The notes under the pieces: generated by a model
The model's database searches: none
What the model was told of the DNA's origin: nothing
The model's input: only the letters and a program-made list of their open reading frames with translations
In this document: in pieces, positions 1-26 of the stretch
Position numbering within the stretch: position 1 is the stretch's first letter
Layout: each line of letters begins with the position of its first letter
Translations under genes and position numbers: made by a program
Source: Escherichia coli
Lineage (GTDB): Bacteria; Pseudomonadota; Gammaproteobacteria; Enterobacterales; Enterobacteriaceae
Strand: one strand, 5' to 3'
Length of the DNA: 1,258 nt
NCBI RefSeq assembly: GCF_003334385.1
Contig: NZ_QOWN01000119.1

Positions 1-26
1 TGTAGTGGCACACTAAATTTGGCCAC
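1..26 (+). repeat. Left terminal inverted repeat (IRL), TGTAGTGGCACACTAAATTTGGCCAC
   Basis: The reverse complement of 1233..1258 is TGTAGTGGTCAAGTAATATTGGCCAC. It matches 1..26 at 20 of 26 positions: the first 8 bp are identical, the internal block GGCCAC is identical, and mismatches fall at positions 9-11, 13 and 17-18. The 5' TG terminus is typical of the IS3 family. Confidence 0.85.

Follow-up and report, generated by a model that had tools for sequence, protein, structure and literature searches.

Conserved blocks and end-specific bases in the terminal inverted repeats of an IS911-related insertion sequence: a probable promoter split between the two ends

The terminal inverted repeats of the insertion sequence described here are alike in the blocks that a transposase would contact, and differ at positions 9–11 in bases that fit the two halves of a promoter. 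The window, by which we mean the whole stretch of Escherichia coli DNA analysed (1,258 nucleotides), is a complete 1258-bp IS3-family insertion sequence related to IS911. We consider contact blocks common to both ends, combined with a promoter split between those ends, to be the best explanation as a whole, and we give it a probability of about 0.8. The anatomy of the ends, its conservation among relatives and the geometry of the promoter are direct observations. A first-pass annotation of the same DNA had read the asymmetry of the repeats as the imprint of embedded promoter and coding signals; as a whole, that interpretation is partly supported.

The coding layout is that of the IS3 family: two partly overlapping frames, with orfB in the -1 frame and an A6G site leading to a fused OrfAB (Table 1). 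The fused protein has 392 aa, reaches 360.6 bits with NF033516, the NCBIfam model for IS3 transposases (cutoff 160), and includes the Pfam domains HTH_Tnp_1, HTH_21, rve and rve_3. RefSeq labels the window's protein “IS3 family transposase” and “programmed frameshift”. The termini are TG...CA and belong to imperfect inverted repeats at the exact ends of the complete element. A search for distant DNA matches gave end-to-end alignments with IS911, ISEc52 and unnamed relatives at about 63–65% identity, and OrfB is 56–57% identical to the IS911 group at the amino acid level. Of 5426 complete E. coli genomes, 2416 contain a match of some kind to the window. Among the 2674 matching records, 938 have a best match of 99% identity or more, and many of these copies are 100% identical.

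Several observations concern the element rather than its ends. Many plasmid matches cover only positions 343–1258 or only positions 1–344, which indicates a recurrent breakpoint at ~343–344, just past the A6G frameshift site, where there is no annotated feature. Beside tssC in E. coli chromosomes (hits H1–H5), the window is present at 100% identity as two pieces spread over 1445 bp, so that ~187 bp of additional DNA must lie inside the element or next to it. The Rfam model RF01387 (isrC) matches positions 69–191 on the + strand over all 123 positions of the model, at 150.4 bits (gathering score 39). isrC is an Hfq-binding “island” sRNA of Salmonella Typhimurium that was mapped between envF and msgA. 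The correspondence of its model to the 5ʹ part of the element's orfA suggests that this sRNA is transcribed from an IS remnant.

Table 1. Features of the window and base counts at individual repeat positions in 44 related elements. Coordinates are window positions; positions within a repeat are counted from the tip of each end.
Feature	Coordinates	Strand	IRL	IRR	Description
IRL	1–26	+			left terminal inverted repeat, as delimited in the first-pass annotation
Tip block, TGTAGTGG	1–8				same at both ends; by analogy the IS911 alpha block (cleavage domain, contact with the catalytic domain)
Putative junction -10	6–14	+			TG (6–7), n, CACACT (9–14); holds the end-specific positions 9–11; putative function
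Linker	13–19				weakly constrained, A/T-rich; between tip and binding block; holds mismatches 13, 17 and 18 and TAAATT (14–19)
Candidate weak resident promoter (pIRL-like)	19–46	+			-35 TTGGCC (19–24), 16-bp spacer, TG (38–39), n, TATTCT (41–46)
TGGCCAC block	20–26				same at both ends; by analogy the IS911 beta block (part of the binding site of the OrfAB N-terminal region)
Shine-Dalgarno AGGTGA of orfA	63–68	+
orfA	73–384	+			103 aa from the ATG at 73; carries the HTH
Slippery heptamer A AAA AAG	333–339	+			programmed -1 frameshift giving OrfAB
orfB frame	339–1250	+			DDE/rve catalytic domain; stop TGA (1248–1250) inside IRR
IRR	1233–1258	-			right terminal inverted repeat; also codes the last OrfB residues, V-A-N-I-T-stop
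TTGACC	1247–1252	+			outward-facing -35 hexamer of the putative junction promoter; IRR positions 12 to 7; overlaps the orfB stop
Repeat position 9			C34/T10	T44	end-specific; differs in 34 elements
Repeat position 10			A43/T1	C44	differs in 44/44 elements
Repeat position 11			T29/C15	A44	differs in 44/44 elements
Repeat positions 12, 14, 16			A, T, A	A, T, A	common to both ends
Repeat position 13			G31/C11 (plus T1, A1)	G24/C20	not end-specific, JSD 0.05
Repeat position 15			G21/T15/A8	A34 (T6, G2, C2)	end-biased
Repeat position 17			A38	A25/T19	weakly end-biased
Repeat position 18			T40	A29/T15	weakly end-biased
Repeat position 19			T43	T33/C11	weakly end-biased

IRL reads TGTAGTGGCACACTAAATTTGGCCAC, and the reverse complement of IRR reads TGTAGTGGTCAAGTAATATTGGCCAC. 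Direct comparison bears out the pattern that had been described for them, with identity at 1–8 and 19–26 and divergence at 9–11, 13 and 17–18: the two sequences match at 20 of 26 positions, and the mismatches are exactly 9, 10, 11, 13, 17 and 18. For a fixed pair of window ends, at least 20 matches in 26 would arise by chance with a probability of ~4e-8 (binomial, p = 0.25). Past position 26, similarity between the ends falls to 4 of 10 for positions 27–36.

Relatives were collected as 80 loci fetched via OrfB alignment, with one genome per species, from sources that include Vibrio, Photobacterium, Shewanella, Colwellia, Pseudoalteromonas and enterobacteria. The ends of each element were located by matching complementary sequence ahead of orfA and at the end of orfB, leaving the window sequence unused. 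A first pass required the first three bases to be equal at both ends, and a repeat pass left positions 1–3 free. Seven loci with truncated contigs or altered tips were left out at re-anchoring. Clustering at 90% nucleotide identity yielded 44 distinct elements with a median pairwise identity of 66% (58–64% between the window and the others), all of them members of one OrfB-defined clade and hence not phylogenetically independent.

The located ends are validated by flanking DNA: 3-bp direct repeats surround 14 of the 40 elements that have both flanks, and only ~0.6 would be expected. The short target duplication of the IS3 family (3–4 bp) is thus seen in this set at a length of 3 bp. For a 94%-identical copy of the window the duplicated sequence is gca. 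The other 26 of these 40 elements have no 3-bp duplication, and they include a 100%-identical copy; such missing duplications suggest that frequent rearrangement or targeted insertion followed the original insertion. The 100%-identical copy interrupts a prophage head-tail joining gene.

Across the 44 relatives, the divergence between IRL and IRR is position-specific and not random, as the annotation had held. We took the third codon positions of orfB as a near-neutral baseline, with a mean of 0.66 bit. The information content at IRR 9–12 is 2.0 bits; those of IRL 13 (0.90 bit) and IRL 15 (0.51 bit) are both at about the level of the baseline. IRL has A12 in 42 of 44 elements and T14 in 43. In the comparison of the 44 lineages, purifying selection acts on the end-specific bases at 9–11 in IRL and IRR independently, and these are the only differences that each end maintains for itself.

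Could the six mismatches simply reflect random decay of a repeat that was once perfect? Position 13 would fit such a history. The closest relatives have G at both ends and C is found in IRL only in the window's lineage, so that the mismatch at 13 is a lineage-specific change. Position 15, near the neutral baseline, would fit as well. However, at positions 10 and 11 the two ends disagree in every one of the 44 elements, each end keeping its own base although the elements are only 58–66% identical. These per-position counts refute random decay for 9–11, and as an account of the six mismatches together we regard it as having next to no chance of being right.

The proposal that divergence falls exactly where embedded signals lie therefore needs to be divided. 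It stands for 9–11 and fails for 13 (JSD 0.05) and for 17 and 18 (JSD 0.13 and 0.27), where we see weak end bias in an A/T-rich linker. As far as the sequences can tell, the mismatches at 13, 17 and 18 carry no identifiable signal.

In the right end, TTGACC is invariant in 44 of 44 relatives, and the TGA that forms the orfB stop corresponds to IRR positions 11 to 9. The claims that the ends are non-equivalent and that the right end holds both a -35 hexamer and the orfB terminus are upheld by this arrangement, in which the stop lies within the hexamer. TTGACC serves as repeat, as stop codon and, putatively, as -35 hexamer. Its position, facing outward six bases from the right end, means that insertions could create hybrid promoters for neighbouring genes.

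The overlap with orfB raises the question of whether the asymmetry is a by-product of coding: IRR must carry the stop and the C-terminal codons of orfB, while the non-coding IRL drifts, and no promoter is involved. orfB does end inside IRR, the TCA at IRR 9–11 is the reverse complement of TGA, and GTGGCC codes for a conserved Val-Ala. Yet a constraint for a stop alone would allow TAA or TAG, neither of which is ever found; the stop is TGA in all 44 relatives. The last sense codon is ACT, AGT, TGT or GGT, so that four amino acids (Thr, Ser, Cys, Gly) occur, but it always ends in T. Residues past the Val-Ala are variable, and protein-level constraint there is therefore weak. The invariant TGA and the constant T before it argue for a constraint on the word TTGA at the level of DNA, beyond the need for a stop. 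IRL is also not free to drift, with A10 and T14 each present in 43 of 44 elements against the 0.66-bit baseline. The invariant TGA, the T-ending codon and the conservation of A10 lead us to reject a coding-only origin for 9–11, and we consider this explanation quite unlikely overall.

What, then, could constrain both ends at the same positions? According to published descriptions of IS911, its IRR supplies a -35 and its IRL a -10, which are joined at the circle junction by a spacer of 3–4 bp that gives optimal spacing, and the junction promoter was demonstrated experimentally. We rebuilt the corresponding junction for 44 elements by joining the last 30 bp, NNN and the first 30 bp, the 3-bp spacer being taken from the target duplications and the literature, and scanned it with a σ70 weight matrix. 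In 44 of 44 junctions the best site consists of TTGACC, a 17-bp spacer (6 + 3 + 8) and IRL 9–14, with a TG at IRL 6–7 that makes an extended -10. Hence, the split -35/-10 arrangement of the IS911-like clade is present at the sequence level in every junction, in one direction only. With a matrix that consists of textbook frequencies and arbitrary values for the spacer penalties and the TG bonus, the native IRR-NNN-IRL junction scores 12.2 on average when read into orfA and 4.3 on the opposite strand. Artificial IRL-IRL and IRR-IRR junctions have mean scores of 5.9 and 8.2, and the 99th percentile for internal 63-nt windows is 9.4.

Only 3 of the 6 bases of CACACT agree with TATAAT, and we infer its role as the -10 from its geometry and from our own weight matrix. 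A12 and T14 are kept at both ends, and thus are not attributable to the promoter alone. The two hexamers exclude each other in a perfect repeat: with TCAA, IRL would lose the essential A at the second position of the -10, and with CACA, IRR would no longer have its TTG. This incompatibility accounts for the constant difference at positions 10–11 and the usual difference at position 9.

The first-pass annotation had named a different left-end signal, TAAATT (14–19), which in this version would act as a promoter hexamer paired with the TTGACC of IRR. Taken by itself, TAAATT is the hexamer in IRL that most resembles a -10 (score 5.78), and IRL 16–19 is somewhat more conserved than IRR 16–19. Across a 3-bp junction, however, TAAATT lies 22 bp from TTGACC, and with its best -35 partner, ACTACA, its total score of 2.06 does not rise above background. 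When the element is integrated, the -35 for TAAATT would be situated in flanking DNA, and the best junction promoter uses 9–14 instead in 44 of 44 elements. We have accordingly rejected TAAATT as a promoter hexamer, and we see very little prospect that this version of the split promoter is correct.

Joined ends were also sought directly. The pattern of abutted ends (IRR-spacer-IRL) has no match in 90 loci. A scan of metagenome contigs for abutted ends returned 25 matches, none with GGCCAC blocks, a number close to that expected by chance according to our own estimate. One of the 25 is an IS911-like IRR beside a repeat-like remnant. Soil metagenome contigs L091, L102, L107, L111 and L113 have in common an unrelated sequence, AAAAATATTCG-TTGACC-ACTACA-tt-TGTAGTGG-nAACGGGATTGC, in which a palindrome beside a -35-like box mimics abutted IS tips by chance.

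How might ends of this kind work? We propose that the 26-bp repeats are the bipartite ends of an IS911-like IS3-family element. The tip (1–8) would be presented to the catalytic site of the transposase, and the block at 20–26, probably on to ~36, would be the binding site for OrfAB, through its N-terminal HTH region. These contact blocks would have to be alike at both ends, and they are. Between the blocks the transposase would tolerate differing sequence, and each end could place its own signal there: in IRR, GGTCAA (7–12), which is TTGACC on the + strand, an outward -35 containing the orfB stop; in IRL, TG-G-CACACT (6–14), an extended -10. In the integrated element the promoter halves are 1.2 kb apart and would be inactive. 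Circularization with a 3-bp spacer would place them 17 bp apart and so generate a promoter reading into orfA and orfAB. The asymmetry at 9–11 would then be a requirement of the design, and the mismatches at 13, 17 and 18 would be part of a weakly constrained A/T-rich linker without signals. For the transposase contacts, the formation of circles and the activity of the promoter, this proposal draws on homology to IS911.

An alternative function for the end-specific bases is that 9–11, together with the bias at 15 and 17–19, mainly cause the transposase to discriminate between the ends, for instance when donor and target end are chosen, or in biased targeted insertion of the type described for IS2. 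Such a function is compatible with a split promoter. End-specific sequence continues at positions 27–30, as this alternative would have it, and a published paper reportedly deals with bias between the left and right repeats of IS911. On the other side, both ends are reported to have donor function in IS911, IS3 and IS150, and the conserved bases fall exactly on promoter hexamers that are 17 bp apart. We consider it unlikely that differential treatment of the ends is the main reason for the asymmetry, and prefer the split promoter.

The element probably also has a promoter of its own at the left end. TTGGCC/TG-n-TATTCT is the best weight-matrix hit in the left 72 nt, and its geometry is common to 36 of 44 relatives. 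A -35 at 19–24 would account for the observation that T19 is fixed in IRL but not in IRR. In the published IS911 map, a left-end promoter is marked as pIRL. The resident left-end promoter of the window most likely uses TTGGCC (19–24) and TG-n-TATTCT (38–46). The pIRL of IS911 is said to be weak and to lie partly within IRL (attributed to Duval-Valentin 2001). A strict promoter scan of the linear window found no σ70 sites, the candidate at 19–46 being below threshold; this fits a weak resident promoter without giving positive evidence for one. The end bias in the A/T-rich linker (15, 17–19) could represent a small upstream element for the left-end promoter. Close to this region, the frame of orfA can be opened 12 codons ahead of the ATG at 73 by a GTG at position 37, which makes an ORF of 115 aa, and an AGGTGA at 35–40 repeats the Shine-Dalgarno-like AGGTGA at 63–68.

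The same region has a further property at the level of RNA. The invariant binding block contributes CCACCTG (23–29), which is complementary to CAGGTG(A) (62–68), a stretch overlapping the Shine-Dalgarno sequence of orfA. When a transcript starts at position 21, its minimum-energy fold has 24–29 paired with the Shine-Dalgarno region (-12.8 kcal/mol, z = -2.0), and 39 of 42 relatives are predicted to form this pairing in transcripts that start near position 21; both arms are invariant, so covariation cannot test the pairing. We tentatively raise the idea, which we think doubtful, that the binding block also acts as RNA, with CCACCUG (23–29) pairing with CAGGUG (62–67) in transcripts that start upstream of ~24. 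The predicted pairing arm would be present in transcripts from the junction promoter or from flanking read-through, and could mask the ribosome-binding site; transcripts from the resident promoter, which would start near 53, would be without it. If this is true, translation of transposase mRNA would depend on the promoter of origin, adding an extra layer of control. No description of such a promoter-dependent layer of translation was found in the literature searched.

The blocks shared by the two ends can be compared with what is known of transposase binding. IS3-family ends have two parts, an inner domain for protein binding and an outer one for cleavage, and the usual terminus is CA-3ʹ; a study of IS3 ends (Nat Commun 2025) used IS150, IS2 and IS3 as its elements. 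The IS911 inverted repeat is 36 bp long. Published work on IS911 describes three conserved blocks at its ends. Cleavage is assigned to alpha, and beta together with gamma makes up the binding domain footprinted by OrfAB[1-149]. A dimer of truncated transposase bridges the subterminal region of IS911 and leaves the tip free for the catalytic domain.

We assigned alpha, beta and gamma to window coordinates by position. The resulting structure is recognizable in the 44 relatives, with a tip at 1–8 and TGGCCAC at 20–26; the block at ~31–36 is weak in the window. With the exception of position 3, positions 1–8 are invariant in IRL, and in IRR they are invariant but for position 6 (T43/C1). TGGCCAC is invariant or nearly so in both IRL and IRR. 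The third block (~31–36) is kept at the level of the family, as TTAGAG or ACAGAG in relatives, and is poorly matched between the window's own ends (TGAAAG and TTACAG). By homology to IS911, the N-terminal domain of OrfAB would bind the subterminal part of both repeats, and by the same analogy the functional left end probably extends to ~36–39.

Position 3 of the tip behaves in its own way. It is T in 38 elements and A in 6, and the two ends of an element are always equal. With positions 1–3 left free during detection, all 63 elements with intact tips agree between their two ends at position 3 (3 and 1256 in the window). On a neighbour-joining distance tree, it has switched between T and A at least 6 times. 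Change at the two tips is thus concerted, and there is no obvious copying mechanism. One genome, that of Colwellia ponticola, has two different elements (L033 and L038) with a common altered left tip, ATAAGTGG, in place of TG(T/A)AGTGG; their right tips are normal (TGA and TGT). These may be inactive copies or may have a variant left end.

What does the window add to what is known? It has little discovery value in that it restates the split-promoter design of IS911, in which strong expression of transposase is limited to the circular intermediate. The design is already known from that element, and the window is a widespread but unstudied relative of it. The comparison across 44 lineages adds clean evolutionary confirmation of the IS911-type design of the ends.

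A close named element is ISEc31, known from the NCBI annotation of a 92.8%-identical copy. Like the window it is 1258 bp long, and its ends are equal to those of the window but for two bases: IRL position 13 (G in ISEc31, C in the window) and IRR position 19 (C in ISEc31, T in the window).

IS2, which belongs to the IS2 group of the IS3 family, also has bipartite ends (an inner binding and an outer cleavage domain) and asymmetric repeats. It has a junction promoter that needs a 17-bp spacer and a left-end promoter with an extended -10. IS2 differs from the window in its 1-bp junction spacer, in its IRL, which has TA-3ʹ at the terminus and does not act as a donor end, and in the lengths of its ends, 41 and 42 bp. 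In the window, in contrast, TG...CA is kept at both ends.

IS911 itself, from the IS3 group and found in Shigella and E. coli, is a close parallel in design. As in the window, orfA is followed by an A6G -1 frameshift and by an orfB that ends inside IRR; the repeats have a TG(A/T)AGTGG tip, a linker and TGGCCAC; and the IS911 clade makes 3-bp target duplications. The two elements differ in overall sequence (~63% identity in nucleotides and 56% in OrfB amino acids), in length (1258 bp for the window, 1249–1250 bp for IS911), at tip position 3 (T in the window, A in IS911) and in the IRR linker (GTAATAT in the window, CAAAAAC in IS911). Positions 9–11 are nevertheless CAC in IRL and TCA in IRR in both, and TTGACC and TG-n-CACACT are identical in sequence and position.
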